Shown here: piece after piece, positions 2,266 through 49,798 of the stretch
Position numbering within the stretch: the stretch's first letter is position 1
Layout: every line of letters begins with the position of its first letter
DNA from: an uncultured Bacilli bacterium
GTDB taxonomy: Bacteria; Bacillota_I; Bacilli_A; RF39; UBA660
Length of the DNA stretch: 64,000 bases
Direction of reading: 5' to 3'
NCBI GenBank assembly: GCA_944358795.1
Contig: CALVRW010000011.1
Location: 5,737-69,736, forward strand
Made by a program: the position numbers and the translations under genes
The notes under the pieces: generated by a model
What the model saw: only the letters and a program-made list of their open reading frames with translations
Database searches by the model: none
Told to the model about the DNA's origin: nothing

Positions 2266-2365
2266 TATTTTATGATAGACCAAAATATTTAAGGGATAAA
2301 TCAAGTTAAAGGCATTTTGATAAGAAATATCTTTTTGTGTGGTATACTATATATAGGTGATATTA

Positions 2366-3211
2366 ATGAAGATGAATGATTATATCAATATAGTTAAAAA
2401 AAATATTAAGAATGATAATTCGCAAATAATAATGATAAATCAGATTAAGCGATATTTTGATTATAAAGATAGACATATAGATTTAAAAAAATATGAAATA
2501 GGAGATGAGGTTTTTCTAAATAAAGGAACATTACTCCATGGAACATATAAAAATTTAGATGGGTTAAAAGAAATTGTAAATAATGGTTTAATTTCAAGTT
2601 GGTTCATAGATGGAAGATTATCTAAATATCCTAGTTCAGTTGGGGTATGGAATCTAAAACATGATTATAAATTATCTGAATATATTAATTTTTATTCTGG
2701 AGGAACGATATTTTATGCTGGTATATTTGAAAATGGAGTAGATACTCAGAAAAATAAGACTGCCATTATTCCGTATGATGAAATGAATAATATTATAGAT
2801 ATAACAACAAGTGTTAACTGTCATATGTGGACTTTAGAACAAACAAAAGAAGCAAGATTTATGCCTAGTTTAGTTCAAAATAATGTACAAATTGGCATTA
2901 TATTTAATGGACAAAATGATGAAGTAAGAGAATTGTTAAAAGGTGACATTTTATCTAATTCTATTAATGATGAAGATGTAAAAGAATTTGTTAATTCAAA
3001 TTATTATGAGAAATTTATAAGAGACAGAAAAAATAAAGATGATTTTTTTACGGATAGAGAAAGCGCAATTTTGTTTGGATTACCATCCAACTTGATAGAA
3101 GGTATATTAGTCGGTAGAAAATATGAAAAAGATAATCAGATTTTAAAAGAGATAAAATCGTTATTACCAGATTGTTATATATGTAACTTAGATGGTATTG
3201 TGATAGCTTAA
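2366..3211 (+). CDS. Hypothetical protein (about 281 aa); ends 13 nt upstream of the Fic gene
   Basis: Long ORF with RBS aggtga before the ATG at 2366 (the ORF track starts at GTG 2357). I recognised no motif. Confidence 0.5.
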   Translation: MKMNDYINIVKKNIKNDNSQIIMINQIKRYFDYKDRHIDLKKYEIGDEVFLNKGTLLHGTYKNLDGLKEIVNNGLISSWFIDGRLSKYPSSVGVWNLKHDYKLSEYINFYSGGTIFYAGIFENGVDTQKNKTAIIPYDEMNNIIDITTSVNCHMWTLEQTKEARFMPSLVQNNVQIGIIFNGQNDEVRELLKGDILSNSINDEDVKEFVNSNYYEKFIRDRKNKDDFFTDRESAILFGLPSNLIEGILVGRKYEKDNQILKEIKSLLPDCYICNLDGIVIA

Positions 3212-3224
3212 AGGAGTTTTAACT

Positions 3225-3974
3225 ATGGATATAAAAAAAATTAAAAACGAATTAATTAAACAAAAGGAATCAAAATTTAAAGGTAATATCTATCATTATT
3301 CACAGGTTAACTTTTCTTTTAATTCAAATAAGATTGAAGGGAGTAGATTAACTAGTGAACAAACAGAAGCGATATTTGATACATCTTCTTTTATTCCTAA
3401 AAGTGATGATTTAATTAAATTAGATGATTTAACTGAATCCAAAAATCATTTTAAATTATTTGATTATATGTTAGATCATGTAGAAGAATTATTGTCTAAA
3501 AATATGATAATTGAAATGAATAAGATATTAAAAAGAAATACTAGTGATGAAGAAAATCCTAGATATAATGTAGGTGGTTTTAAAGTTGTTCCTAATATAA
3601 TAGGATTAGTTAATGTTATCAATACAACTGCACCTGAAGATGTAGAACGAGAAATAGAAGAATTATTAAATGAATATAATTCTAAAACTAATATTACTTT
3701 AGAAGATATCGTTGACTTTCATTTTAGATTTGAAAGAATTCATCCTTTTGGAGATGGAAATGGTCGTGTTGGTAGAATGATTATGTTTAAAGAATGTTTA
3801 AGAAATAACATTATGCCATTTATTGTATTAGATGATGATAAACCTTATTATATGAGAGGTTTAAAGGAATATGAGAATGATAAAATGTTCTTAATTGATA
3901 CGATAAAGCACGAACAAGATTTGTATGAAGAAATGTGTAAAGAATTATTAAATTTTGATATAAAAGAAAAATAA
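3225..3974 (+). CDS. Fic/Doc family protein (probable AMPylator or phosphotransferase)
   Basis: Canonical Fic active-site motif HPFGDGNGRVGR (HPFx[DE]GNGRxxR). Confidence 0.85.
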   Translation: MDIKKIKNELIKQKESKFKGNIYHYSQVNFSFNSNKIEGSRLTSEQTEAIFDTSSFIPKSDDLIKLDDLTESKNHFKLFDYMLDHVEELLSKNMIIEMNKILKRNTSDEENPRYNVGGFKVVPNIIGLVNVINTTAPEDVEREIEELLNEYNSKTNITLEDIVDFHFRFERIHPFGDGNGRVGRMIMFKECLRNNIMPFIVLDDDKPYYMRGLKEYENDKMFLIDTIKHEQDLYEEMCKELLNFDIKEK

Positions 3975-4273
3975 TAAAGAACTAAACATCCTATAGAACT
4001 GTATTATTACAATTGGGATGTTTTTGTATACTTTGAATTGATAAAAGAAGTAATACTAAAATGAATCTTTTATCCATAAATTTAAGTGAGGTGTTTCAAG
4101 TTTATGGATAAATATAAGATTCATTATATATTTCATGAGAAGAACGATATGAATGATATTTTTATTAATGTGTTAAATAAGGAGTTAAAAAAGTTTATTT
4201 TATCAAATTGTAAAGACAAAAAAAGGAAAGATTCATCATCCAATCATTGTCTTACTTTAGAAAGAGGAAACAA

Positions 4274-5842
4274 TTGATTTATAACGTTAATCAAATATAT
4301 AGTGCGGGACTTTATATTAGACTATCAAGAGAAGATGATGATAAGATTTTAGAAAGTGAGAGTATAACGAATCAAAAGAGGTTATTACTTCAGTATGTGA
4401 AAGAAAATCATTTAACTGTTTATGATATATATGTTGATGATGGATATTCTGGGACAAATTTTGACCGACCAGATTTTAATCGATTACTCAGTGATATTGA
4501 ATTAGGTAAAGTGAATATGGTTATTACCAAAGATATGTCAAGATTAGGAAGAGATTATATTGGTACAGGAAATTTAATAGAAAAGTATTTTCCAGAACAC
4601 AATGTTAGATATATAGCAGTTACTGATAATATCGATACATTTTTAGATAGTTCTAATAATGATATCGCCCCATTTAAAGCAATAATGAATGATATGTACG
4701 CGAAAGATATTTCAAAAAAGATTAAATCTAGTTTACGTGCAAAGCAAAAAGAAGGAAAGTGGGTAAGTGGAAGATGCCCTTTTGGATATATGCAAGATCC
4801 TAGTGATAAGAATCACTTAGTAATCAATGAAGAGCAAGCATTCGTAGTGAAAAGAATTTATCATATGTGTTTGGATGGATTATCCTGTTTTAAAATAGCA
4901 AAACAATTAACGAATGAAGGAGTAAAAACTCCAGCACAATATTATAATTTTGAGTGGAAAAGTCATTATAATTTAAATTATGGAATATGGAATTCTAAAA
5001 CAATCAGAGATATATTAACGAATCAAATGTACATCGGAAATTTGGTTCAAAATAAAAGAAATAAAGTGAATTATAAAGTGAAGAAAATTGTTACCAATAA
5101 TCCTGAAAATTATATTGTTGTAGAAAATACCCATGAACCAATTATTGACAAAGATACTTTTTATGAAGTACAAAAAAGAATTCCTAAAAATGTAGGAAGA
5201 AACGAGAAAAAAGAAAATCATTTGTTAGATGGAATTTTATATTGTGGGGATTGTGGACATAGGATTGGAGTAACTTCTAGGAGAAAAAAGGATAACAGAT
5301 GTTATACGATTTGTAATTATTATAGAACTTATATGAAACAAAAGGTATGTACAACTCATTCGAATAATTATGACGAATTAGAAAAAGTAATTCTTAGTTC
5401 TTTAACTAATGTGTGTTTAAATTATATTAATGAAGATAAAATTAAAAATAATGTATTAAATAATTTAATTGAAGATAACAAAATTAATAACAAAAAAGAG
5501 TTAGAAATACTTACCAATGATATTAAACAAATAAATGATAATTTAGATATTATTTATATTGATAAATTAAATAAAAAAATAACTGAAGAACAATTTGGAA
5601 GAGTAAAAGTAAAATTAGAGCGGGAATTACATATAAAACAAAAAAGATATGATGATTTAAATAATGATATTAATAATACTGTCAATGAAGAATCTAAAAA
5701 TAAAATGATTCATGAGTACACTAAAAAATTTCTATCTATGAAAAAGCCTAGTAGGGAATTAATAATTAATTTAATTGATAAGATAGAAATATTTGAAGAT
5801 AAGACTATCAATATTAAGGTTTGTTTTAATAATTTTCATTAG
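4274..5842 (+). CDS. Large serine recombinase (resolvase/invertase N-domain plus recombinase and zinc-ribbon C-domain)
   Basis: N-terminal catalytic region GLYIRLSREDDD resembles the large serine recombinase YxRxSxxxQ/D motif. A Cys-rich stretch CGDCGHRIG...CYTICNYY and a coiled-coil tail are present. RBS aaagagga sits before the TTG at 4274; the ORF track uses TTG 4247, so the start is uncertain. Confidence 0.85.
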   Translation: MIYNVNQIYSAGLYIRLSREDDDKILESESITNQKRLLLQYVKENHLTVYDIYVDDGYSGTNFDRPDFNRLLSDIELGKVNMVITKDMSRLGRDYIGTGNLIEKYFPEHNVRYIAVTDNIDTFLDSSNNDIAPFKAIMNDMYAKDISKKIKSSLRAKQKEGKWVSGRCPFGYMQDPSDKNHLVINEEQAFVVKRIYHMCLDGLSCFKIAKQLTNEGVKTPAQYYNFEWKSHYNLNYGIWNSKTIRDILTNQMYIGNLVQNKRNKVNYKVKKIVTNNPENYIVVENTHEPIIDKDTFYEVQKRIPKNVGRNEKKENHLLDGILYCGDCGHRIGVTSRRKKDNRCYTICNYYRTYMKQKVCTTHSNNYDELEKVILSSLTNVCLNYINEDKIKNNVLNNLIEDNKINNKKELEILTNDIKQINDNLDIIYIDKLNKKITEEQFGRVKVKLERELHIKQKRYDDLNNDINNTVNEESKNKMIHEYTKKFLSMKKPSRELIINLIDKIEIFEDKTINIKVCFNNFH

Positions 5843-5877
5843 GATTATGATATAATAGTGTATTAAGAGGTGGTAGT

Positions 5878-7455
5878 ATGAGTATTTTAACAAGTGCAAG
5901 TAGTTCCTCTGTTAGCAGAGGTTATGATTATTATAAAAAAAATAAAGTTCGTAATGTAAAGCAATTAAATGATCATGAATTTGAAGGATATGTTGATGGA
6001 AGTTTAAAAAATCCTTATTATGTAAAAATAGATATAGCACATCCGAGAAAATCCTATTGTGATTGTCCTCATGCAAACGGAAATATTACTTGTAAACATA
6101 TGACTGCATTATATTTTGAACTATTTCCTGAAGAAGTGGAAGATTATGAATCATGGTTAAATAGTGATTATGATGAAGACGAAGAAGATGATTACTACGA
6201 ATATGATCGATATTATGACGATTATGATTATAGAGAATCTTCTAATTTTGAAAAACCATTATTTTTTGATGTAGTATTAGAAAAATACGTTAATGATTTG
6301 AGTATAGAAGAGTTAAAACAAACATTGTTAACAGAACTTAAAAGTAATGAAAAAATAACGTTTGAATTATATTTAGAAAAGAATTATAAAAAATATTTAC
6401 AAAATAATAGTGACGAGTTTGCGTTTTTAGATAAATTGAATAAAAAGGTACAAGATTTAACAGAATACTATAATTATGACTATAATGATTTTAATAAAGA
6501 AATATTAAATGTCAGACAAAAAAGAAAAATAGAAGAGTTATACAAAAACAAATCATTACAATTACAAATAGATAAAATATTATTAAACGAGAAATTAGCT
6601 GTATATACAGATTATAAGTGGATTGCCAAGTTTTATAAGAAAAATAAAAATAATGAAGAAATATATGAATTTTGTAATGTATTAAAAAACTATTTAGATA
6701 GTTTAAAACATTATAGTATAAAAAACACAGTTCCAAAATCAAATGTCTTAATCACAATACATTTATTAAATGATTTTAGTATAACAGAGTGTGCAAATCT
6801 GATGTTGAAAAACGCGAAATATTTACAATATATTGATTATATTGTTGAAAATAGTAATGATGTTTTAAATTTGTATAAATCATTTATGAAATTAATTGAA
6901 AAGAATTATTTTAAGAATAAAATGTATATTCCAAATGTACTATATAGATTTGTTATGGTTACTGATTTTGAAAATAATGATATAAATAAAAATTATTATT
7001 TGTATAGTTATTTATGTTTAGGTCATGTTGAATATTTAGATATTTTGGGATATTATTTAACAGCAGACGAAATTATTAAGATAGTAGAAAATAAAACTAA
7101 AGACATTTTCTTGCTTGTTAAACTTTATAAATTTTATGACAAAAAAGAAAAGTTATGGAATTTATTAATTGATAGTAATTATAAATATCTATTGTTAGAT
7201 AATATAGAAATATTAAAAGGAAAATACAATGATGCGTTATATAATCATTTTATAGATGAATTTTATAATATTTTAAAAGATGGTAAGAACAGGGAGACTT
7301 ATCATAAAGCATCGAAATATATAAGTGCAATTTCAAAATTAAATAATGGTAATGATCTAATAGAAAAAATAGTAATAGATTTAAAAAACTCAGATTATCA
7401 GAAATGTTCAGCATTATTTGATGAAATCAATAAGTCTATTAGCAATAATAGTTAA
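5878..7455 (+). CDS. SWIM zinc-finger domain protein with an acidic D/E/Y-rich stretch
   Basis: CxCxnCxH pattern CDCPHANGNITCKHMTALYFE is typical of SWIM fingers. It is followed by the acidic run DYDEDEEDDYYEYDRYYDDYDYRE. RBS aagaggtgg. Confidence 0.55.
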   Translation: MSILTSASSSSVSRGYDYYKKNKVRNVKQLNDHEFEGYVDGSLKNPYYVKIDIAHPRKSYCDCPHANGNITCKHMTALYFELFPEEVEDYESWLNSDYDEDEEDDYYEYDRYYDDYDYRESSNFEKPLFFDVVLEKYVNDLSIEELKQTLLTELKSNEKITFELYLEKNYKKYLQNNSDEFAFLDKLNKKVQDLTEYYNYDYNDFNKEILNVRQKRKIEELYKNKSLQLQIDKILLNEKLAVYTDYKWIAKFYKKNKNNEEIYEFCNVLKNYLDSLKHYSIKNTVPKSNVLITIHLLNDFSITECANLMLKNAKYLQYIDYIVENSNDVLNLYKSFMKLIEKNYFKNKMYIPNVLYRFVMVTDFENNDINKNYYLYSYLCLGHVEYLDILGYYLTADEIIKIVENKTKDIFLLVKLYKFYDKKEKLWNLLIDSNYKYLLLDNIEILKGKYNDALYNHFIDEFYNILKDGKNRETYHKASKYISAISKLNNGNDLIEKIVIDLKNSDYQKCSALFDEINKSISNNS

Positions 7456-7544
7456 TTAAATTTTAACAATTGGATACAATAATAATTAAAAAATAATTGA
7501 CAAATGTATAAACATTGTATATACTTAAAGTGGGTGGAGATGAT

Positions 7545-7808
7545 ATGATGGAAGCAAGACTTCAAAAATGGGGAAATTCAGACGGAATAAGAATTCCTAG
7601 TAGTTTTTTAAAATCACTTAATTTAAAAACAAATGATGTCGTCGAATTAATACAAAAAGAAGATTCTATTATTATTTCAAAACCTAAAAAAAAGCATTTA
7701 TCATTAGAAGAAAGAATTGAAATGTATGAACAATTACCAGATAATGAAAAAGGAACAGTAGAATCATATGATTGGGGAGAAGATATAGGAAAGGAAAAAT
7801 TTTATTAA
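7545..7808 (+). CDS. mazE: MazE/AbrB-fold antitoxin
   Basis: MMEARLQKWGNSDGIRIPSSFLKSLNL matches the SpoVT/AbrB swapped-hairpin antitoxin signature. Its stop overlaps the toxin start in a TAATG junction. Confidence 0.7.
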   Translation: MMEARLQKWGNSDGIRIPSSFLKSLNLKTNDVVELIQKEDSIIISKPKKKHLSLEERIEMYEQLPDNEKGTVESYDWGEDIGKEKFY

Positions 7809-8140
7809 TGTATATACCAAAACAAGGAGATATATGTTATATGGATTTTGCACCAACAAAAGGTCATGAACAAGCTGGAGTAAGACCTGCTATCGTAATT
7901 AGTAAAGATTACTATAATAAATATACGAATATGGCAATTATTTGCCCAATTACAACAAATACAAAAAAGTTCCCTACTCATTATGAAATTAAAAACACAA
8001 AAAGAGTGAAAGGTTCTGTTTTATGTGAACATATTAGAAGTATAGATTTTAATGTTCAAAAATTATCATTTATTGAAAAAATAAAAGAAGAAGAGTTAGA
8101 AGAAATAATAGATATAGTAAATGGGATAATAGAAATTTAG
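7808..8140 (+). CDS. mazF: MazF/PemK family endoribonuclease toxin
   Basis: MYIPKQGDICYMDFAPTKGHEQAGVRPAIVIS is characteristic of PemK/MazF. The ATG overlaps the mazE stop. Confidence 0.8.
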   Translation: MYIPKQGDICYMDFAPTKGHEQAGVRPAIVISKDYYNKYTNMAIICPITTNTKKFPTHYEIKNTKRVKGSVLCEHIRSIDFNVQKLSFIEKIKEEELEEIIDIVNGIIEI

Positions 8141-8305
8141 TATATCAAAAAAGGCCACACACATATTTGCCCAATCCATACACATGTAATAAATCGTCAT
8201 ATCTATAATCATACGTATACACCACAATTTAGTTGTTCAGAAGAAAATCAAGTTGTGAATAATGACCCAGGTTGTAGTGGTGGATTTATGAATCAAAATT
8301 TCTAA
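8141..8305 (+). pseudogene. Start-less His/Cys-rich reading frame (…GHTHICPIHTHVINRHIYNHTYTPQFSCSEENQVVNNDPGCSGGFMNQNF*), candidate remnant of a small spore-coat-like peptide gene
   Basis: The frame is open from the base after the mazF TAG to the TAA at 8303-8305. It contains no in-frame ATG and only a late GTG. It shares the NPG…MNQ segment with the 2110..2265 peptide. Confidence 0.3.
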
Positions 8306-8336
8306 AAAATAAAAAGGTTCTCCTTTTTATTTTTTT
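8306..8336. terminator. Rho-independent terminator-like hairpin (aaaaagg ttct cctttttatttttt)
   Basis: GC-containing stem followed by a T-run. Confidence 0.5.
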
Positions 8337-8374
8337 GAGTATATGATAATATAGAATTGAAAGTAGGCGTTTTA

Positions 8375-8773
8375 ATGAAAGTATTGACAATCAAAGAACC
8401 ATGGGCATCTTTAATTATTGATGGGTATAAAGAATATGAATTTCGTAGTTGGAAAACATCTTATCGGGGAAAAATATTAATTCATGCTGGTATGAGTTTA
8501 GAACAAGATATGCTAAAACGATTTCAAGATTATCATTTAAATTGTCAAAAGGGAGCGATTATTGGAGAAGCAGAGTTGACAGATTGTATTTTAGTTGATG
8601 ATGAATTTAATGAAGCATTACAAAAGATTGATCCGATTGTATATGGGAGAAGTAATCATACAGAAACATATGCATGGAAATTAGAACATGTAAAAAAATA
8701 TAAAAATCCAATTTCAATAAAAGGAAAATTAGGATTATGGAATTATGAAGGAGAGAAAGAAGATGACCTATAA
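8375..8773 (+). CDS. ASCH domain protein
   Basis: LTIKEPWASLIIDGYKEYEFRSW resembles the ASC-1 homology (PUA-like) fold signature. The ORF track starts at TTG 8357. Confidence 0.5.
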   Translation: MKVLTIKEPWASLIIDGYKEYEFRSWKTSYRGKILIHAGMSLEQDMLKRFQDYHLNCQKGAIIGEAELTDCILVDDEFNEALQKIDPIVYGRSNHTETYAWKLEHVKKYKNPISIKGKLGLWNYEGEKEDDL

Positions 8774-9110: not shown

Positions 9111-9150
9111 AAAATAAAAAAGACATCCTTTCTTGGATGTTTTATTTTTT
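9111..9150. terminator. Bidirectional rho-independent terminator between convergent genes
   Basis: Stem agacatcc / ggatgttt, with an A-run upstream and a T-run downstream. Confidence 0.6.
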
Positions 9151-9795
9151 ATGTAAATATTCTTCTAGAGTTAGTTGTTTTTCATAAATCGTAGTTGCGG
9201 CTTCTTTACCAACATAGCGGTAGTGCCAAGGTTCATATTTAAAACCAGTAATATGTTCTTTTCCACTTGGATAGCGTAAAATAAATCCATATTCATGGGC
9301 ATGTCTTTTCATCCATGTAAATGCGTTTGAATCTTCAAATCGATCATAATCCATATTTTCTCCCATTACATCAATGGATAGTCCGGTTTGATGTTCTGAA
9401 TGACCTGGTCTAGCACTACAATTATCCGCATATTTTTTCCCTTTTTCTTTCACATAATATTGATATAAATTTTTTTGATATCGATAACTGCGAAAGGTAG
9501 ATACTGCAATAATTTGATATCCATCTTGTTTTGCTTCATGACTTAACTGTTCAAAAGCATTTTTTACTTCTTTTCTTACATATTTATGATCATTTGCATA
9601 CTTTACATCTATTTTTTCTAAATCATAGGGAATATAGTTACTAGGTAAATAGTGAAATTTATTTACGAGAACAAGATTGGAATTCGGATTTTTAATGGGT
9701 GTTATATTTTGATAGAACTCTCTTTTTTGATTATCGTGGTTTATTGTTAAAATAAGAAGAATAAAGAGAATGATTCGAATCTTTTTTTTGTACAT
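9142..9795 (-). CDS. VanY-type D-alanyl-D-alanine carboxypeptidase (M15B), secreted
   Basis: Signature SARPGHSEHQTGLSIDV. An N-terminal signal or anchor is present. Confidence 0.85.
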   Translation of the reverse strand: MYKKKIRIILFILLILTINHDNQKREFYQNITPIKNPNSNLVLVNKFHYLPSNYIPYDLEKIDVKYANDHKYVRKEVKNAFEQLSHEAKQDGYQIIAVSTFRSYRYQKNLYQYYVKEKGKKYADNCSARPGHSEHQTGLSIDVMGENMDYDRFEDSNAFTWMKRHAHEYGFILRYPSGKEHITGFKYEPWHYRYVGKEAATTIYEKQLTLEEYLHKK

Positions 9796-9846
9796 ACTAT
9801 CACCACTATAATATATGCGAAAAGAAAAAAGAATCCTTTCGGTTTC

Positions 9847-12192
9847 TTAATTTTCTGTTCGTTTATCTATTCTTTTATAGAAGAAAGTTGAAAAGATTCC
9901 AAATAAGATAACGGTTATTACAGATAAAATAGATAATATGATAAACATTTCAAAACTAATAATTGTTAAACTATAGAAGTTTTGCATAAAGATGACTTGT
10001 AATAAAAATAGGACAATCATACTAATGAAGAGTGTTATTTTTAAAGGATTGAATGGTAAACATAAATAATAAAGTAGGATAAATCCTGTAATTGCATTCA
10101 TCATAACACATAGTGTAGACGTGACTGTGTCATTGAATTGAAATAAGTGAGAGCAAGCCATGATGGCTAAAATATTTAGTACAACTAAGATTGCAGTTGG
10201 TAAAGATTTACTTAATACATTTTTAAAGAAATTACCTTGGATACGATTTTTATTTGGTTGAATTGCAAGAATAAAAGAAGGAATTCCAATGGTAACTACA
10301 CTGGTTAATGTTAATTGTATTGGCATAAATGGATAATTCATTTGTAAAAATATAAATAGAATTGCCAAAATAGTAGAGTAGGATGTTTTAGTTAAAAATA
10401 GGGTAGCTGACTGTTCAATATTATTTACAGTTCTTCTTCCTTCATCGACAATTTTAGGCATGGCAGAAAAGTTAGAATTTAGTAATACTAATTCTGCGAT
10501 ATTTTTCGCAGCATCACTTCCATTTGGCATAGCAATACTACAATGTGCTTCTTTTAAAGCAAGTACATCATTGACTCCATCTCCTGTCATGGCGACATAA
10601 TGTTTATGTTCTTTCATGGCACGAATTAAATCTCTTTTTTGAGTAGGTGTTACACGTCCAAATATTGTATATTTTTCACTTGCTTCTTTGATTTCTTCTT
10701 CTGTGTGTAAAGTACTCATATCAATATAATTTTCATAGTCTTCAATTCCAGCTCTTTTGGCAATACCAGCAACTGTTTTTACATTATCTCCAGAAATAAC
10801 TTTAATTTGAACTCCTTGTTTTTTGAAATATTGTAACGTTTCTTTCGCATCATTTCTAATTTTATCTTGGATATATAATAATCCATATAATTCTAAGTCT
10901 TCAGGAATTTCTTTTTCTTTGATTTCTTTTTTTGTATGAGCAAGTACTAAAATACGGTATTCTAATAAATCATTTTGTATCATGTTTTCTAATTTTTGAT
11001 ATTGATGTTTTAGTAGTATTTCAGGTGCTCCTAAATAAAAGGTTCCTTTTTTTTCAAAGGTACATGCTGAAAATTTAATGTCTGAAGAAAAGGGGATTTT
11101 TTTTGTACAATTCCAATTGGATGGAGTATGATACTGTTCTTTGATTGCTAAAATAGTTGCATTACTATCGTCAATGTGTTGGCAAAAGGCATTCATAACT
11201 TCGTCAATTTCTTCTTTTTGATGTTTTTCTAAAGGAATTGTTTTTTTAAATTCCATTTTTCCTTCGGTAATTGTTCCAGTTTTATCAAGACATAAGGTAT
11301 CAATACGAGCAAGTGTTTCGATGCAATATAAGTCTTTTACTAATACTTTATATTTTGATAAACGAATGACACTAACAGCTAAAACAGTACTAGTAAGAAG
11401 GACAAGTCCTTCAGGAATCATGCCTAAAACACCAGCTACTGTATTTACTACGGCAGTCTGTATGTTATTATCAGGAATTTGTAATTGATTAAAAAATAAG
11501 ATGGTACCGATTGGGATAATTGCAATCGAAATCCATTTGATAATTTTATTTAGTGATTGCATTAAAATAGAACTAGTAGGTTTATGATATTTTGCTTCAC
11601 ATGATATTTTAGCAGTATAATTATCCATTCCAATATGTTCTACTTTTGCTCTTACTTTACCACTTACTAAGAAACTACCAGATCGTAGCATCTTACCAGC
11701 ATCTTTATATTCTGTATCAGATTCTCCAGTAATAAACGATTCATCTACTTCACAACTACCTTCCATGATAATCGCATCCGTTACAATTTGTTCTCCTGGT
11801 TTTATTTCTAATACATCATCTAAAACAATTTCATCAATGGCAATCTCTTTTTCTTTTCCATCACGAATTGCGTGGACTTTACTAGCCGAAATAATGGATA
11901 GGGCATCAATTTCTTTTTTTGCTCGAATTTCTTGGATAATACTAATAATGGTATTACAAAATACAACTCCTAAAAATAATAAATTTTTATAAGATTGGAC
12001 GAGAATAATTAAGATTGCAAGTCCAAAGTTAAGTAAATTAAACAATGTGAAAATATTTGAAAAAATAATTTGCTTAATTGTTTTTGTTGGAACAGAAGTA
12101 TCATAGTTTACTAAATTATCATGAATTCTTTGTTCTACTTGTTCACTTGATAATCCAAAAGTAGAACTAGGTTGATATCGTACTTCTTTCAT
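9847..12192 (-). CDS. Cation-transporting P-type ATPase (type II, PEGL-containing)
   Basis: Phosphorylation motif DKTGTIT, hinge motif GDGVNDVLALKEAHCSIAMP and a PEGL motif are present, along with multiple TM segments. The start is taken at MKEVRYQ because the RBS aaggtg precedes it; the ORF track extends to 12255. Confidence 0.9.
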   Translation of the reverse strand: MKEVRYQPSSTFGLSSEQVEQRIHDNLVNYDTSVPTKTIKQIIFSNIFTLFNLLNFGLAILIILVQSYKNLLFLGVVFCNTIISIIQEIRAKKEIDALSIISASKVHAIRDGKEKEIAIDEIVLDDVLEIKPGEQIVTDAIIMEGSCEVDESFITGESDTEYKDAGKMLRSGSFLVSGKVRAKVEHIGMDNYTAKISCEAKYHKPTSSILMQSLNKIIKWISIAIIPIGTILFFNQLQIPDNNIQTAVVNTVAGVLGMIPEGLVLLTSTVLAVSVIRLSKYKVLVKDLYCIETLARIDTLCLDKTGTITEGKMEFKKTIPLEKHQKEEIDEVMNAFCQHIDDSNATILAIKEQYHTPSNWNCTKKIPFSSDIKFSACTFEKKGTFYLGAPEILLKHQYQKLENMIQNDLLEYRILVLAHTKKEIKEKEIPEDLELYGLLYIQDKIRNDAKETLQYFKKQGVQIKVISGDNVKTVAGIAKRAGIEDYENYIDMSTLHTEEEIKEASEKYTIFGRVTPTQKRDLIRAMKEHKHYVAMTGDGVNDVLALKEAHCSIAMPNGSDAAKNIAELVLLNSNFSAMPKIVDEGRRTVNNIEQSATLFLTKTSYSTILAILFIFLQMNYPFMPIQLTLTSVVTIGIPSFILAIQPNKNRIQGNFFKNVLSKSLPTAILVVLNILAIMACSHLFQFNDTVTSTLCVMMNAITGFILLYYLCLPFNPLKITLFISMIVLFLLQVIFMQNFYSLTIISFEMFIILSILSVITVILFGIFSTFFYKRIDKRTEN

Positions 12193-12285
12193 ATGACACC
12201 TTCTTTCTTTTTTTATTATAACATGTTCTAGCAAGACAGGAAAGAAGTGTGACAAATTTGTTAGAAAGAAAAGAAGTAATCAAAA

Positions 12286-13446
12286 TTACTTCTTATTTAG
12301 ATAATATTCATAATATTCTTCGTACGTAATATTTTCTTTCTGAATCTTTTCTGCCATTTCTTTTCCAACATAGCGGTAATGCCAAGATTCATAATGATAT
12401 CCAGTTATATATTCTTTTTCTTTTGGATAGCGTAAGATAAATCCATAACGATAGGCATTCTCGATTAACCAAGTAAATTCATTTGTACCTTCAAATGTAT
12501 CAAAATTACTACGACTACTTGTAATATCTAAAGCTAGTCCAGTTTGATGTTCTGAATGTCCAGGTCTTGCTGAATAACTATCTGCCCATTCTAATCCATG
12601 CTCGTTTTTATAACGATTATAGATAATGTTTTGTGTTTCATAACTACGATATCCAGAAGTAATACTAAGTAGAAGACCTTCTTTTGCTGCATCTTGTTTC
12701 ATCTGTTGATAAGCATCGGCAACTTCTTTTTTCGCAGATTCATTTCCTTCGATTGTCACTAAATCTTCTGGCACGTAATCTTTATCTAATTGATAATATT
12801 TATTTACTAAAATGAGATTTCCTTTTTCTAAATCTGTTTTTTTAATATTGGTATAAAATTCGTAATCTAAGTTTGCATTGACATCTCTTACTACATCAAC
12901 GGTATCTTTTTTTGTTTTGTTGTAATAATTGATATAACGAATTAAATGATCTTCTATATAATATTTTTCTTTTTGTAGTAGGGGAATAATATCTGAATAT
13001 GGAATATTTGCATTTACGAGTGTTACAGATGTATTAGCATCTAATTTAGAACGACTAGCAAATGCCATATATTCTTTAATTTTCTTTTCGTTATATTCAT
13101 TATTTTCATCTAAGTTATTATTGATGATAAATACAGTTTCTTCACTTGTTGTTTTATGTGATTTTTGATAAACAAAGTATTCTTTAAATTGATTTTTGTT
13201 AAATTCTTCTTCTTTAATTAAAGATTGAATATTTTTGTTGTAGTCAATAGTTTTAATTGTTTCAATATCTTTTTGATTCAATGTTTTAATTAACTCTACT
13301 TCTTCATTATTATAACCAATTTTCTTTAATTGATAATCATCTGTTTTTCGATATTCTAAATAACGATAAAAATTAATACCTCCAATAATAATTAAAAGAA
13401 CGACTACTATGGCAAGTATTATAGTTTTATAATTTTTCTTTTTCAT
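12286..13446 (-). CDS. Membrane-anchored VanY-domain D,D-carboxypeptidase paralog
   Basis: An N-terminal TM is followed by a long K/E/N-rich linker and then a C-terminal SARPGHSEHQTGLALDI domain. The start is taken at MKKKNYK because the RBS aggtga precedes it. Confidence 0.8.
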   Translation of the reverse strand: MKKKNYKTIILAIVVVLLIIIGGINFYRYLEYRKTDDYQLKKIGYNNEEVELIKTLNQKDIETIKTIDYNKNIQSLIKEEEFNKNQFKEYFVYQKSHKTTSEETVFIINNNLDENNEYNEKKIKEYMAFASRSKLDANTSVTLVNANIPYSDIIPLLQKEKYYIEDHLIRYINYYNKTKKDTVDVVRDVNANLDYEFYTNIKKTDLEKGNLILVNKYYQLDKDYVPEDLVTIEGNESAKKEVADAYQQMKQDAAKEGLLLSITSGYRSYETQNIIYNRYKNEHGLEWADSYSARPGHSEHQTGLALDITSSRSNFDTFEGTNEFTWLIENAYRYGFILRYPKEKEYITGYHYESWHYRYVGKEMAEKIQKENITYEEYYEYYLNKK

Positions 13447-13528
13447 CCTATCACCTAATAATATTATATAGAAAAGGCTAGAGGAGTGCAAATCTTTTTT
13501 TAAAAAAACGTATGAGGTGTTTCATACG

Positions 13529-14503
13529 TTATTTGTCAGCTAAATAATATGCATAATATTCGTCATAAGTAATTCCTAAGTCATGAATTTTTGTTGCAAC
13601 TTCTTTTCCAACATAACGGTAATGCCATGATTCATAACTATATCCCGTAATATCTTCTTTTCCTTTTGGAAATCTTAAGATAAAACCATATTTATGAGCA
13701 TTTTTTTGTAACCATTTAAATTCTTCTGTTTGATCAAATTCATTGTTATAACTATTATAAGTTACTATATCAAGTGCAAGTCCCGTTTGATGTTCAGAGT
13801 GTCCAGCACGTGCAGCTCTACTATCTGCATCTTCTTCACCAGTACTATTCGCAATACTATTCCATACTTCATCTTGTGATTCATAATCACGATAAGAAGA
13901 AGTCACAATTAAAGTTAAACCTTCTTTATTAGCCGCATTCCACATACTACGATATGCTTCATATACTTTTTTAGAAATTTGTTGACCTTCATATGCGTAT
14001 TGACTAGATATTTCTACAATTTGATCTGGTTGAAAGTTTTTATTTAATTTATTATATTTGTTAACTAAAATAAGATCACCTTTACTGGTATCCGTGTTTT
14101 TTACATGGGTATAATATTCGTAGTCACGGTTAACATTTACCATTGTAACAATATCTTTCATACTGAGATCACGATGTTTATTCGCATATTTTAAATAACG
14201 ATCTAAGTTGTCAAATATGAAATATCTCTGTGTCAATAATTTTGGAATAATTCGATTATAACGAAGTTCTTTTATTTTATCTAATTGTTTATCGTTATTC
14301 TTTGTCTTTTTTAAAATTGTTTCTACATCACTTTTACTATAGCCTTTATCAAGAAGTTTATATTCATCACTCATACGATAAGTAATTGTATTCACTAAAT
14401 ATACAATGATGATGATTGCTAATATAGTTCCTCCAATAAATAGTTTTCCAAATTTAGATAAGCGAATTCTTTTTTTCTTTCTTGTATTAAGCGTTGTATT
14501 CAT
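13529..14503 (-). CDS. Membrane-anchored VanY-domain D,D-carboxypeptidase paralog
   Basis: An N-terminal TM is followed by a linker and then a C-terminal RAARAGHSEHQTGLALDI domain. The start is taken at MNTTLNT because the RBS aaggtgat precedes it. Confidence 0.8.
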   Translation of the reverse strand: MNTTLNTRKKKRIRLSKFGKLFIGGTILAIIIIVYLVNTITYRMSDEYKLLDKGYSKSDVETILKKTKNNDKQLDKIKELRYNRIIPKLLTQRYFIFDNLDRYLKYANKHRDLSMKDIVTMVNVNRDYEYYTHVKNTDTSKGDLILVNKYNKLNKNFQPDQIVEISSQYAYEGQQISKKVYEAYRSMWNAANKEGLTLIVTSSYRDYESQDEVWNSIANSTGEEDADSRAARAGHSEHQTGLALDIVTYNSYNNEFDQTEEFKWLQKNAHKYGFILRFPKGKEDITGYSYESWHYRYVGKEVATKIHDLGITYDEYYAYYLADK

Positions 14504-14627
14504 TATTATCACCTTAAACTTATTATAACCAAATTTTAGCAATAATACAACTTGATATATGACTAATTTGTATAATATCAAAAGAATGGTAAATGGTAAT
14601 AGTAAATGATCAAATAGGTGAGATGAT

Positions 14628-46129: not shown

Positions 46130-46630
46130 ATGAAAAATCAAAATAAAATGGTATTATTTTATGGGATGGATCCAGTTGATGGTCAAGTAAAAAATGGATC
46201 TTATGATCGTATTGGAAATATTTATGAAGATGATTTTCACATTTCTTGTTTTCAAGAATTTTGTAAATCTCACTTTTTAGATATCAAAGCATTTCAGAAT
46301 TTATCTTATCGTAGTTCTATTGATATTGTTAGTTATTTTTTATCTAAAGTGATGGGACATGTTGTATTTGTTAATACAACAAAAGATATTGAAAACTATG
46401 GTTATTCAGGAATGGTTTTTATGCCTTCACAATTAACCGAAGAGCAAACAACTTTGTTAAAATCATTTGTCGAAGAATTAACTTCATTTCAAATTTTAAT
46501 TAATTACGATATGGAATTAAATGATGGAATTATTGAAACAAAATCAAAACAAACTACAAGTACAATTGATACTAAACAATTTGTCAATGATTTTATTGAT
46601 ACTCATTATAAAGAAGGAAAGAAGAAGTAA
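46130..46630 (+). CDS. Hypothetical protein
   Basis: ORF with RBS gaggtg; no motif recognised. Confidence 0.4.
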   Translation: MKNQNKMVLFYGMDPVDGQVKNGSYDRIGNIYEDDFHISCFQEFCKSHFLDIKAFQNLSYRSSIDIVSYFLSKVMGHVVFVNTTKDIENYGYSGMVFMPSQLTEEQTTLLKSFVEELTSFQILINYDMELNDGIIETKSKQTTSTIDTKQFVNDFIDTHYKEGKKK

Positions 46631-46631
46631 T

Positions 46632-47150
46632 ATGTCTTGCTATGAATATGATGACTTATATGAAAAGTGTCAAAATACCGGATTATATCATCTGTTTTGT
46701 TTTGATATAAAAAATAGTAAAAGTTGTCATGATAATAAAATAGAGATTTTATATACGTTATTACATCGATTATATTTAGTTTTAGAATCATTAGAAAAAG
46801 AACTAAAACGTCCGATTTTAGTTCGAGAATCGCCTTTATTATTGGGGATTTATCAAAATGGTCATTATAGTTATCCACGTGTCAATGATATGCGAGATTG
46901 TAATGCGAATTATTATGAACCATTATTATTTGGTGATTCTATTTTTCTTACTGTATATCGAGATGCGATTAGTACAGATGAAATGTTTCACATCTTTGAT
47001 GAAGTAAAAGAATCACTTGGTATACCTTATCAGTTTCATTATCATCATGGATATTATGAAACAAATGATATTGCAAAATCTCGCGAACAATATTTTCGTG
47101 GCGATTTATTAGGAAAATTAGAACAAGCGCATAAGAAAAAAGTGAAGTAA
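46632..47150 (+). CDS. Hypothetical protein
   Basis: RBS aaggaaag before the ATG at 46632. The ORF-track 5' extension overlaps the previous gene. Confidence 0.4.
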   Translation: MSCYEYDDLYEKCQNTGLYHLFCFDIKNSKSCHDNKIEILYTLLHRLYLVLESLEKELKRPILVRESPLLLGIYQNGHYSYPRVNDMRDCNANYYEPLLFGDSIFLTVYRDAISTDEMFHIFDEVKESLGIPYQFHYHHGYYETNDIAKSREQYFRGDLLGKLEQAHKKKVK

Positions 47151-47246
47151 GTAATTGTTAAATAATTTTAAACTATCTCATTTTATTTGATGGTAGGGAA
47201 ATTGTACTAGAAACTGAAGAATTTGAATAAAGTAAAAGATGGACTT

Positions 47247-47336
47247 TCATCCATCTTTGTTTTTTTTTATAAATTCTCTAAGCATTTTAGTAAGTGCTCT
47301 TTTTTCGATTCTCGACACATAACTTCGAGATATCAT
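47247..47336 (-). pseudogene. Displaced duplicate of the last 25 codons of sigK (MISRSYVSRIEKRALTKMLREFIKKNKDG*), in frame immediately after the XRE gene
   Basis: The reverse-complement translation reproduces the SigK C-terminus ISRSYVSRIEKRALTKMLREFMKKNKD with one substitution. Confidence 0.6.
47255..47333. repeat. Direct repeat copy A (79 bp, 3 mismatches) of the sigK 3' end; att-like
   Basis: Aligned by eye with 49111..49189. Copy A is ctttgtttttttttataaattctctaagcattttagtaagtgctcttttttcgattctcgacacataacttcgagatat and copy B is ctttgttttttttcataaattctctaagcattttagtaagtgctcttttttcaattctcgacacataacttcgcgatat. Confidence 0.85.
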
Positions 47337-47582
47337 TTATTCTTCCTCTAAAGGTTTAAATAATTCTCTAATATCTATATTTAATACTTCGGCAAATCTC
47401 CATATTGTTCCTAATCCAAATGTTTGATGGTATTTAGGACTTTCTATGTTCATTATAAAGCCTTCACTATAATTACATTTTTCTGCAAATTGGCTTTGAG
47501 TTAATCCTTTTAGTTTTCTTTGTTTTTTCAGGTTTTGTGCTACTAAATAATATACATAGTTTTCATCTTCTTTACTAATCAT
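47337..47582 (-). CDS. XRE-family helix-turn-helix transcriptional regulator (phage cI/Cro-like)
   Basis: LKKQRKLKGLTQSQFAEKCNYSEGFIMNIE is a classic HTH_3 motif. Confidence 0.8.
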   Translation of the reverse strand: MISKEDENYVYYLVAQNLKKQRKLKGLTQSQFAEKCNYSEGFIMNIESPKYHQTFGLGTIWRFAEVLNIDIRELFKPLEEE

Positions 47583-47737
47583 ATTATAGCACCTACCTTT
47601 CTAGTAATATTTTCTCACTTATTTATCAAAATATACTTCACCTATTCGTTGAGGTGTGCTATAATGTAAATGTAGTAATTATTGGTTAAAAATATGCTAG
47701 TATAGGTATTTTTAATAAATGTAGTATGGGAGGAGGT

Positions 47738-48094
47738 ATGGAAGTGGAAACAAAATTTTGTGAGTTTTGTGGAGCCAAGGTAGTAATTGATGCAGTTATT
47801 TGTCCAAACTGTGGGAAGCAACTTGAAGAATTAAAAACAGAAGAAAATAGGTCTAATCCTCAAGTAATTATAAATAACTCAAATACAATTAATGGAATTG
47901 CTGGTAAAAAACAATGCGACAAATGGGTTGCACTAATTCTATGTGTTTTTTTAGGAGTTTTAGGTGGACATAAATTTTACGAGGGTAAAGCTGGAATGGG
48001 AATTTTATATATTTTCACTGTAGGATTATTTGGAATAGGTATCATAGTAGATTTTATTTCGATACTATGTAAACCTAATCCATATTATGTATAG
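47738..48094 (+). CDS. Zinc-ribbon plus TM2-domain membrane protein
   Basis: N-terminal CEFCG…CPNCG zinc ribbon. C-terminal TM2-like pair ALILCVFLGVLGGHKFYEGKAGMGILYIFTVGLFGIGIIVDFI. RBS gggaggagg. Confidence 0.6.
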   Translation: MEVETKFCEFCGAKVVIDAVICPNCGKQLEELKTEENRSNPQVIINNSNTINGIAGKKQCDKWVALILCVFLGVLGGHKFYEGKAGMGILYIFTVGLFGIGIIVDFISILCKPNPYYV

Positions 48095-48104
48095 GAGGAG
48101 TAAA

Positions 48105-48977
48105 ATGGAAAATAAAAAATTTTGTAAATTTTGTGGTGAAAAAATTGATAGTGATTCAGTAGTTTGTCCAAAATGTGGAAGACAATTGGAAACTACCAAA
48201 AAGGTTGAAGATGTAAACAGAATAACAAATCAAGGCGAGGAAAAGCCTAAATTTTATACACAAGACTGGTTTATGTGGGTTATGTTGATTTTTGTTGCAC
48301 CAGTTGGTATATTTTTAATGTGGAAGTATAATGATAAGATGAAAAAAAATACAAAGATAATATTATCAATAGTATTTGCAATATTTTTCTTGATTTTTGC
48401 ATTTGGTGGAAGCAGTGATACAACGACAACTGATAAGCCATCATCAAATAACAACAATGATAAAAATGCTGAAGTAAATGTGAAAAAAGTTGAAGTTATT
48501 GATTTTAGTTCAATGAAAGAAAATGAAATATTAACTTGGTGTAATGAGAATAATCTGATTTGTAATTTTGAAAGAGAATATTCTGATACAGTTGCAAAAG
48601 ATGCCTACATTAATCAAAGTGTTAATGCTGGTGAACAAGTTGTTGAAAACACAAAAGTAACTGTTACTTATTCTCTAGGTAAAGCTCCTACTAAAGGACA
48701 AGAGAATGCTGTAAGAAAAGCAGAATCATATTTGGACACAATGCCATTTTCTAGAAATGGATTAATAGAGCAGCTTGAATTTGAAGGTTTTACGAATGAA
48801 GAAGCTGTATATGGTGTAGATAATGTTATTGTTGATTGGAATGAACAAGCTGTAAAAAAAGCAAAATCATATTTGGATACAATGCCATTTTCTAGAAATG
48901 GATTAATAGAGCAACTTGAATTTGAAGGGTTTACTCATGAACAAGCGGTTTATGGAGTAGATCAAAACGGATTATAA
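48105..48977 (+). CDS. Ltp-family (phage superinfection-exclusion lipoprotein-like) protein with N-terminal zinc ribbon and TM, a PASTA-like segment, and two tandem Ltp repeats
   Basis: CKFCG…CPKCG motif followed by a TM. The unit AVRKAESYLDTMPFSRNGLIEQLEFEGFT occurs twice, encoded by near-identical 120-bp DNA repeats at about 48712-48830 and 48847-48965. Confidence 0.65.
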   Translation: MENKKFCKFCGEKIDSDSVVCPKCGRQLETTKKVEDVNRITNQGEEKPKFYTQDWFMWVMLIFVAPVGIFLMWKYNDKMKKNTKIILSIVFAIFFLIFAFGGSSDTTTTDKPSSNNNNDKNAEVNVKKVEVIDFSSMKENEILTWCNENNLICNFEREYSDTVAKDAYINQSVNAGEQVVENTKVTVTYSLGKAPTKGQENAVRKAESYLDTMPFSRNGLIEQLEFEGFTNEEAVYGVDNVIVDWNEQAVKKAKSYLDTMPFSRNGLIEQLEFEGFTHEQAVYGVDQNGL

Positions 48978-49105
48978 TTTGTTACTAATAACTTATATTA
49001 TAAGATGATTATGATCTTCTTCTTTAATGATAAATAATATGCTTTATTACGAAACTGATTAAATTTTTAGAAATAATGTTACAAAAACAAAAGAACAAAG
49101 ATAAC

Positions 49106-49798
49106 TTAATCTTTGTTTTTTTTCATAAATTCTCTAAGCATTTTAGTAAGTGCTCTTTTTTCAATTCTCGACACATAACTTCGCGATATTTTTAATTTTT
49201 TCGCAATTTCTTTTTGGGTAATCGCATCTTGATCATCCAGTCCATATCTTGCCGTAATAATTTCTTTTTCTCTTGGTGTTAAAATTTGATAATATTGTTT
49301 TAAAAGATCAATATTGTCTTGTTTATGTAAATCCATTGCAAAATCTTGTTCTGGTGTTGTTAAGATATCTAAAAATGTAATTTCATTTCCATCTTTATCA
49401 AATCCAATTCCTTCATTAATACTAACATTTTTACTATTTTTTTTATCACTACGAAAATACATTAAGATTTCATTTTCAATACATCTTGCACAATAAGTTG
49501 TAATCCTAGTACCATGTTTATAAGAATAGGAGTCAACTCCTTTAATAAGTCCAATCGTTCCAATACTAATTAAGTCATCCATATCTTCTTTTCTATGATC
49601 ATATTTTTTTACAATATGCGCAACTAATCTTAAATTATGTTCAATTAATTTGTTTCGTGCTTCTTGGTCTCCTAATTTTGCTTTTTTCACACATTCTTCT
49701 TCTTCCTCTTTTGATAAGGGATCTGGAAATAAATTATTGGAGTAAGCAGCTGAAAACAAATAAAAATTTTGAAATAACTTTTTAATCCAATCAATCAA
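49106..49798 (-). CDS. sigK: Sporulation sigma factor K (pro-sigma-K, with N-terminal pro-sequence)
   Basis: LIEHNLRLVAHIVKKY, ISIGTIGLIKG, YCARCIENEILMYFR and ISRSYVSRIEKRAL are near-identical to B. subtilis SigK as I recall it. About 20 residues precede the NLFPDPLS region. Confidence 0.85.
   Translation of the reverse strand: MIDWIKKLFQNFYLFSAAYSNNLFPDPLSKEEEEECVKKAKLGDQEARNKLIEHNLRLVAHIVKKYDHRKEDMDDLISIGTIGLIKGVDSYSYKHGTRITTYCARCIENEILMYFRSDKKNSKNVSINEGIGFDKDGNEITFLDILTTPEQDFAMDLHKQDNIDLLKQYYQILTPREKEIITARYGLDDQDAITQKEIAKKLKISRSYVSRIEKRALTKMLREFMKKNKD
49111..49189. repeat. Direct repeat copy B (the functional 3' end of sigK)
   Basis: See copy A. This copy contains the sigK stop codon at 49106-49108 plus a terminator hairpin caaagat aacttaa tctttg. 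Confidence 0.85.

Follow-up and report, generated by a model that had tools for sequence, protein, structure and literature searches.

Known elements at sigK and at gene 3′ ends

Textbooks present the sigK gene as the target of prophage-like elements that are excised during development. The elements described in this gene, namely skin of Bacillus subtilis, skinCd and those of the phiS63 type in Clostridium perfringens, split the sigK frame internally (contigs of this kind in IMG/VR end at codons ~65, ~113 and ~142), carry a gene for a large serine recombinase of their own and have to leave before sigma-K can be produced (PMC3442830, PMC5025042). Integrative elements usually preserve their target gene (PMC7192596), and cis-mobilizable elements (CIMEs), which are remnants of ICEs or IMEs integrated at a gene 3′ end, are by definition flanked by att sites and no longer have genes for integration (PMC5704250). 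The subject of this report is a 64-kb stretch of contig CALVRW010000011.1 of an uncultured Bacilli bacterium, hereafter the window, in which a cassette of three genes, encoding an XRE-type regulator, a TM2-domain membrane protein and a protein with two Ltp repeats, lies between an intact sigK and a second copy of the last 27 codons of that gene. The favoured explanation, to which a probability of about one half is assigned, is that a small island carrying a mimic of the sigK 3′ end integrated by a Campbell-type crossover and is now an integrase-less, att-flanked, CIME-like islet with a superinfection-exclusion module as its cargo.

The islet shares with skin-type elements the target gene and a content that is mobile-element-like or mobile-element-derived, but the sigK open reading frame (ORF) of the window is intact, the junction coincides with its stop codon and terminator, and the islet encodes no recombinase; these three features rule out a skin-type sigK element. 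Because the ORF is intact, sigma-K synthesis needs no excision, and the effect of the cassette on sigK is limited to the terminator and the C-terminal tail of the protein, which is KKNKD here and KRK or KKNK in relatives. In lacking an integrase between att-like repeats, the islet resembles CIMEs: in both cases the direct repeats include the 3′ end of the target gene, genes for integration and transfer are missing, the cargo is small and the target is preserved (PMC5704250). The islet differs from CIMEs in having no known integrase-bearing element at the same site and no known accretion partner, in its longer repeat (82 bp) that abuts a cargo stop codon, and in its host, an uncultured spore-former and not a streptococcus. 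The locus can be placed among the known islets that lack an integrase and lie between putative att sites at gene 3′ ends; the use of the sigK 3′ end as a target is new, and the cargo is a compact module with a predicted exclusion function.

Duplication of the sigK 3′ end

The features of the locus are listed below by coordinates in the window, strand and description.

46130-47150, plus strand: two genes of unknown function (166 and 172 amino acids), located directly beside sigK in the cassette-free contig L002
47235-47258, no strand assigned: native bidirectional terminator hairpin (AAAGATGGA/CTTTCA/TCCATCTTT), common to the empty site in L002
47247-47336, minus strand: putative ORF of 29 codons from the distal repeat copy, translated as MISRSYVSRIEKRALTKMLREFIKKNKDG and a stop; its ATG abuts the XRE stop codon (TAAATG) in the same frame, with GAGGAAG upstream
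47253-47334, minus strand: DR-L, the distal copy of the direct repeat (last 27 sigK codons up to ...AAAGAT); differs from DR-R at 47269, 47308 and 47329
47337-47582, minus strand: XRE/Cro-CI-type helix-turn-helix (HTH) regulator of 81 amino acids (HTH_3, by Pfam) at the left end of the cassette; stop codon 2 nt from DR-L
47583-47737, no strand assigned: control region from which the XRE gene and the TM2-Ltp operon diverge; upstream of TM2 it has a good sigma-70-like sequence, the best in the region, at 47637-47665 on the plus strand (TTCACC-17-TATAAT with TG), a match to the consensus only
47738-48094, plus strand: zinc-ribbon and TM2-domain membrane protein of 118 amino acids (122 if the upstream ATG at 47726 is used)
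48105-48977, plus strand: protein of 290 amino acids with a zinc ribbon, hydrophobic segments, a PASTA domain and two Ltp repeats (48669-48809 and 48810-48950); alternative start at 48087
48978-49108, no strand assigned: cassette-side spacer P′, of which the first ~38 nt are conserved with other cassettes and the remainder is unique
49106-49798, minus strand: sigK, intact, 230 amino acids ending in ...REFMKKNKD (NCBIfam PRK05803, 304 bits, cutoff 252)
49109-49190, minus strand: DR-R, the proximal copy and functional sigK 3′ end; the stop codon (49106-49108) is just outside it

A repeat search of the window found one long direct repeat in this region, 47253-47344 versus 49109-49200 (92 nt, 92% identity, spacing 1856), the best-defined block of which is the 82-nt pair DR-L and DR-R, identical at 78 of 82 positions and with a longest exact block of 38 nt. 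The preliminary description of this DNA had reported a repeat of the sigK 3′ end at 47255-47333 and 49111-49189, and this was borne out: 76 of the 79 positions are identical, and with up to three mismatches allowed the 79-mer occurs exactly twice in the window and in none of 100 dinucleotide shuffles. There is no third copy in the 64 kb. The same description was correct in stating that sigK is uninterrupted, being a single 230-codon ORF matched end to end by the NCBIfam SigK model (positions 4-229), with the insertion point at its stop codon and terminator, and that the distal copy can be translated on the minus strand in frame right after the XRE gene. Compared with other species, the distal copy has the states of this species' own sigK (CGAAGT, GTGTCG, ACTAAA, CTTAGA). 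The putative 29-codon ORF, which is annotated as a gene in L001, one of the compared loci, would encode the recognition helix of sigma-K region 4.2.

The further claim that the downstream hairpin was duplicated together with the end of sigK did not hold, as the repeat stops inside the stem (ATCTTT...) and the two copies sit in different hairpins. The end of the distal copy lies within the native hairpin at 47235-47258, which is now the predicted terminator of the 172-aa gene on the plus strand and of the XRE gene on the minus strand. The proximal copy takes part in a new 14-bp hairpin, the 5′ arm (49089-49102) and loop (49103-49108) of which are cassette sequence and the 3′ arm of which (49109-49122) is the first 14 nt of DR-R, such that the loop ends exactly at the junction of cassette and repeat; this hairpin is predicted to terminate both the Ltp gene (+) and sigK (-). 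Over its final ~93 nt, up to the proximal repeat, P′ is unique, and the possibility that P′ is an extended, diverged part of the duplication was rejected when its alignment proved no better than shuffles.

Insertion polymorphism

The L-numbers used here (L001-L236) designate the compared loci and contigs. The exact SigK protein is on record only from contigs with the same arrangement, of which there are three. A conspecific metagenome contig, L002, has 99.0% nucleotide identity to the window on the sigK side and 98.5% on the ileS side, and has the order sigK, 172-aa gene, 166-aa gene, ileS with no cassette; the terminator after its sigK is the same hairpin that follows the distal copy in the window. 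Four more divergent related species (L003/4, L007/8 and L130-134; 81-91% nucleotide identity) are also empty. Therefore, the cassette is a derived, strain-variable insertion, and what had been proposed to be an integration scar is not an old local duplication. By this comparison the cassette-free state is ancestral, and the insertion consists of 1774 bp (47335-49108) plus one copy of the repeat. An assembly artefact is unlikely: exact identity between the two copies extends over no more than 38 nt, and the arrangement is present on three contigs.

L002 has 15 extra nucleotides and two substitutions between ...TTTATGAAAA and AAAGATGGATG, and its SigK ends in MKRK. This tail looks derived, because the AAAAAAAACAAA of the window resembles the ending of other species (MKKNK). 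The preliminary description had the element supply a replacement 3′ end for sigK, a claim that goes beyond the data: the proximal copy has 0 mismatches to L002 in 64 positions and the distal copy 3 in 64, but L002 and the window diverge by ~2% within sigK, which makes these counts uninformative as to the crossover point or the native copy. Outgroup states at the three variable sites are mixed, TCT favouring the distal copy, ATT and ATG the proximal copy.

The stretch between sigK and ileS varies among L002 (10670-10720), L003, L007, L130 and L133: the 172-aa gene is present or absent, and both the terminators and the SigK tails (KKNKD, KKNK, KRK) differ. L007 has an additional gene of 252 amino acids in this region.

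Cassette genes and their predicted function

The regulator, zinc-ribbon/TM2 and double-Ltp genes are, as originally listed, the only genes between the two copies. The preliminary description had named a lack of XRE and Ltp homology as a finding that would weaken its interpretation as a prophage; both homologies are solid by Pfam and PHROG. The Ltp repeats match Pfam Lipoprotein_Ltp (PF07553) in two stretches with an E value of 4e-37, and the Ltp-like protein matches PHROG 4980 and 15667, both 'superinfection exclusion', with E values of 1e-40 and 1e-34; PHROG matches also include repressor families. There are more than 4,000 (about 4,400) homologues of the Ltp-like protein, which is always paired with a TM2 protein. 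Homologous zinc-ribbon starts, 74% identical over 76 nt, are found in the TM2 gene (47752-47827) and the Ltp gene (48116-48191), which suggests that the two proteins share a duplicated N-terminal domain. The base composition of the cassette is no different from that of its surroundings.

The best-studied counterpart is the Ltp protein of Streptococcus thermophilus phage TP-J34, the two repeat domains of which block DNA injection by binding the tape-measure protein (PMC3952083). Both proteins have two tandem Ltp repeats predicted to be outside the membrane, and both genes adjoin a repressor gene of the Cro/CI type. The protein of the window differs in that it lacks a lipobox and has a zinc ribbon, hydrophobic segments and PASTA, in that it is paired with a TM2 protein, and in that it is not in a phage. 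Inspection of its translation revealed no lipobox cysteine ahead of the extracellular part and no lipoprotein signal, so by this criterion the protein is not a lipoprotein; the N-terminus is a zinc ribbon (CxxC...CxxC) followed by hydrophobic segments. By analogy with TP-J34 Ltp, the membrane-anchored protein probably excludes phages, and the cassette is most likely a superinfection-exclusion module acting at the cell surface. PADLOC gave only domain-level matches (HTH, and the PASTA region of PD-T4-6) and hence no defence-system assignment.

The three-gene set in other loci

Nucleotide similarity between the cassette and its nearest relatives starts exactly at the XRE stop codon (47336) and ends just past the Ltp stop codon (48984-49015); therefore, the unit consists of the three genes. 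The XRE-TM2-Ltp set was found in at least 12 different contexts in metagenome-assembled genomes of uncultured Bacilli and 'Clostridia', three of which are clearly mobile elements. In L014 (5025-13943), the set is part of an island of 8.8 kb that also has genes for a tyrosine integrase, an HTH_17 protein, a 371-aa protein and an acetyltransferase and is bounded by a 55-nt repeat (89%) of the 3′ part of tRNA-Arg(cct). In L044 (1409-17285), it accompanies three large serine recombinases (466, 544 and 529 amino acids), a DnaB_C helicase and a homologue of the 371-aa protein of L014, and in L215-217 it lies beside DnaB_C/AAA_25 and extra HTH genes. The set is also found among housekeeping genes without mobility genes, in L122-127 and L128.

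The L128 cassette (6159-8006), located between convergent genes for tRNA-Glu and tRNA-Ser, is a second integrase-less copy with the geometry seen in the window. A perfect 42-nt direct repeat (6159-6200 and 7965-8006, spacing 1806) flanks it; only 4 nt separate the left copy from the XRE stop codon, and the right copy, which extends to the CCA end of tRNA-Ser, includes the terminator hairpin of that gene. There is no integrase within 6 kb. In L129, from a second sample, the contig breaks 30 nt into each repeat, as a k-mer assembler would give. The cassettes of the window and L128 are ~74% identical in nucleotide sequence, neither being the closest relative of the other, with 1774 and 1764 nt between their repeats. 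No terminal inverted repeats beyond shuffled controls were found at the ends of either cassette, and the cassettes have no conserved right end. An empty site for L128 was sought by way of its CmpB neighbour, but in L223, the sole related contig, similarity stops immediately beyond CmpB, which makes it uninformative.

The window, L128 and L014 share one layout: a partial copy of the target, the integrase region in L014 only, XRE (-), TM2 (+), Ltp (+), and the intact target gene (-), with repeats of the same order of length (82, 42 and 55 nt, respectively). The islet of the window thus resembles the L014-type tyrosine-integrase islands in the orientation of the three genes to the target, in its repeats of tens of nucleotides from the target 3′ end and in the preservation of the target gene (PMC7192596); it differs in having neither the integrase, nor the HTH_17 gene, nor the ~7 kb of further genes. 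Relative to integrative elements of the gene-preserving kind, empty-site polymorphism and repeats of the target 3′ end are present and an internal integrase is absent. In ten other contexts of the three-gene set there are no flanking repeats.

LytTR genes flank the set in L009 (8133-8876 and 11092-11832), L011 and L013, but they were rejected as instances of the same phenomenon, being full-length paralogues with 78-87% identity that do not abut the cassette. L010 agrees with L009 in the three genes and the right flank and differs from it in the left flank.

Searches for a recombinase and for related phages

There is no recombinase or integrase gene between the repeats or within 10 kb on either side, in keeping with the earlier view of an element without an integrase. 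That view had added that an integrase matching the repeat might be encoded elsewhere. In the window the sole candidate is a large serine recombinase (4247-5842; Resolvase, Recombinase and Zn_ribbon_recom domains) that the preliminary description had overlooked; it is located 41 kb from the repeats, is 45% identical to one of the recombinases of L044, and nothing links it to the repeat. It was rejected as a trans-acting enzyme because no repeat-like sequence is nearby and because serine integrases neither need nor leave repeats of 82 bp.

The cassette had also been likened to the lysogeny module of a temperate siphovirus. The resemblance stands insofar as the XRE and Ltp homologies are real and the set is found inside integrase- and recombinase-bearing elements, but the siphovirus origin does not follow from it and is improbable. 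In a blastn comparison of the cassette with 50,697 phage records, the TM2 domain was the sole match, and in a tblastn search with the Ltp-like protein, none of the 155 matching phage records reached 80% coverage, so the full-length protein is in none of them; no IMG/VR contig has the repeat core or such a sigK 3′ end. A SigK alignment search of IMG/VR returned no 3′-terminal mimic of sigK, only N-terminal or longer fragments typical of skin-type interruptions. The prophage contigs concerned (L224-L236) end in sigK codons 1-65, 1-113 or 1-142, several with a large serine recombinase nearby, and are of the classical skin type.

Origin of the islet

According to the favoured reading, a small integrative island bore in its attachment region a copy of the last ~27 sigK codons, such mimicry being how integrative elements ordinarily keep their target gene whole (PMC7192596), and one Campbell-type crossover between the island, presumably in circular form, and the chromosomal sigK 3′ end would have duplicated the 82-bp segment as attL- and attR-like repeats, leaving sigK complete with a new terminator formed across the junction. 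The islet may be what is left of an L014-type island with the same three genes, or may have travelled along with such islands, in which case the recombinase would have been a tyrosine integrase. Any further movement would require a recombinase supplied in trans, or RecA acting on the 82-bp repeats. If the native site was single-copy, as both a Campbell and a target-duplication origin suppose, the attB allele should read contiguously ...GAATTTATGAAAAAAAACAAAGATGGATGAAAGTCC, and site-specific or Campbell integration would predict an attP-type junction consisting of the XRE stop codon, the repeat and then TAAGTTATCTTTGTTC.

Several observations weigh against this reading. L002 is not an exact parental attB, having the 15-nt indel and two substitutions (...ATGAAAAGAAAATAAAAAAGCATAATAAAAGAT...) in the very segment that is duplicated in the window. 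Neither 11 related sigK loci nor IMG/VR, searched to a limited depth, yielded an element with an integrase at the sigK 3′ end, and scans of IMG/VR for the 38-nt exact core of the repeat and for the degenerate YVSRIEKRALTKM coding motif gave 0 matches each. In both integrase-less cases only 2-4 nt separate the left repeat from the XRE stop codon, and two independent random deletions would rarely produce such flush ends. As targets, sigK and the tRNA-Ser flank are unrelated, so that two integrase specificities would be needed.

The absence of an integrase in cis and of any phage found with a matching attP, together with the species-specific sigK states of the distal copy, would also suit an insertion without a recombinase or an att site, in which circular or concatemeric DNA carrying the cassette and ~80 bp of sigK 3′ sequence entered by a RecA-dependent single crossover ('insertion-duplication'). 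Such DNA could have been excised repeat-by-repeat from another strain, or could have arrived through transformation or transduction. At its start (TAAGTTATCTTT), P′ bears a weak likeness to the native sequence downstream of sigK in the sister species L007, as a captured host sigK end might, although 7 of 200 shuffles scored equally. This explanation is unlikely, if worth keeping in view: it accounts for spread from strain to strain but not for the first joining of a sigK fragment to the XRE stop codon, the 42 nt of L128 are short for RecA-driven integration, and recurrence of the geometry at two unrelated targets suggests a property of the cassette itself. That last point is taken up by a reading in which the three genes are a self-contained insertion unit that enters bidirectional terminators between convergent genes, the 42- and 82-bp repeats being target-site duplications made by an unknown trans-acting mechanism. 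Two independent cassettes (~74% identical) of nearly equal length between repeats have their left repeat flush with the XRE stop codon, their repeats are host-derived and unrelated to each other, and both were inserted at a terminator between convergent genes. Long, variable duplications of host sequence flanking an insertion have a precedent, the only one known, in the insertion sequences IS1634 and IS1549 (8-514 bp; PMC2266710), but the likeness is in outcome only, since the cassette has no transposase and no terminal inverted repeats. The repeat-less circle expected for such a unit would join ...AACAAAGATAACTTA directly to CATTTATTCTTCC. This reading is improbable: neither a transposase or nuclease gene nor a conserved right end was found, the ten other contexts have no flanking repeat, the 55-nt att repeat in the integrase island L014 is comparable to the repeats of 42-82 nt, and a pre-insertion allele proving duplication of a single-copy target was not found. 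It is a little more doubtful still that XRE-TM2-Ltp is a minimal, recombinase-less mobile cassette that makes 42-82 bp target duplications at bidirectional terminators by an undescribed mechanism, whether trans-acting or linked to replication or repair; if it were, host and cassette genes alike would all retain a terminator.

Reduction of a complete siphovirus-type temperate phage at sigK to part of its lysogeny module is comparably doubtful. Ltp-type exclusion genes do occur in the lysogeny modules of TP-J34-like phages (PMC3952083), the PHROG matches are to superinfection exclusion and repressor families, and sigK is a classical prophage target, with IMG/VR prophage contigs ending in N-terminal sigK fragments. 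However, the interval between the repeats has no genes or pseudogenes for phage structure, lysis or packaging, the full-length protein architecture is in no phage record and DNA similarity does not extend past the TM2 domain, relatives with the three-gene set look like small islands and unlike phages, and the known sigK prophages split the gene internally. A local duplication or an assembly chimera without any mobility, conceivable for a window taken from a metagenome assembly, is essentially refuted by the occurrence of the arrangement on three contigs, the 38-nt limit of exact repetition, the cassette homologues in many genomes and the existence of the empty site.

At this locus sigK has served as a target without being disrupted: the insertion point coincides with its stop codon and terminator, its last 27 codons are present twice, and a new terminator spans the junction. 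A compact and widely distributed module of a repressor, a TM2 protein and a membrane-anchored Ltp-repeat protein travels in integrase- and recombinase-bearing islands and also as an orphan repeat-flanked islet in uncultured gut Bacilli, and may be a superinfection-exclusion cassette that stands alone. In practice the gain is modest, consisting of an insertion polymorphism with its annotation and a clue to the movement of islets that have no recombinase of their own. The recurrent flush geometry leaves a small chance that the insertion mechanism is an unusual one.

Other features of the window

The window has a G+C content of 28% and a gene order typical of Firmicutes (sepF-divIVA-ileS ... sigK / priA-fmt ... 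rlmN-PP2C-PknB). A small cluster at 2357-8773 has the look of a remnant of a further mobile element, with a 284-aa protein that has homologues beside the L044 recombinases, a Fic protein (3225-3974), the large serine recombinase mentioned above, a 525-aa protein of unknown function, a MazF/PemK toxin (7772-8140) and an ASCH protein (8357-8773); neither flanking repeats nor a split gene were found around it. On the minus strand at 9142-14581, three consecutive paralogous D-Ala-D-Ala carboxypeptidases with VanY domains (217, 401 and 350 amino acids) flank a P-type ATPase.

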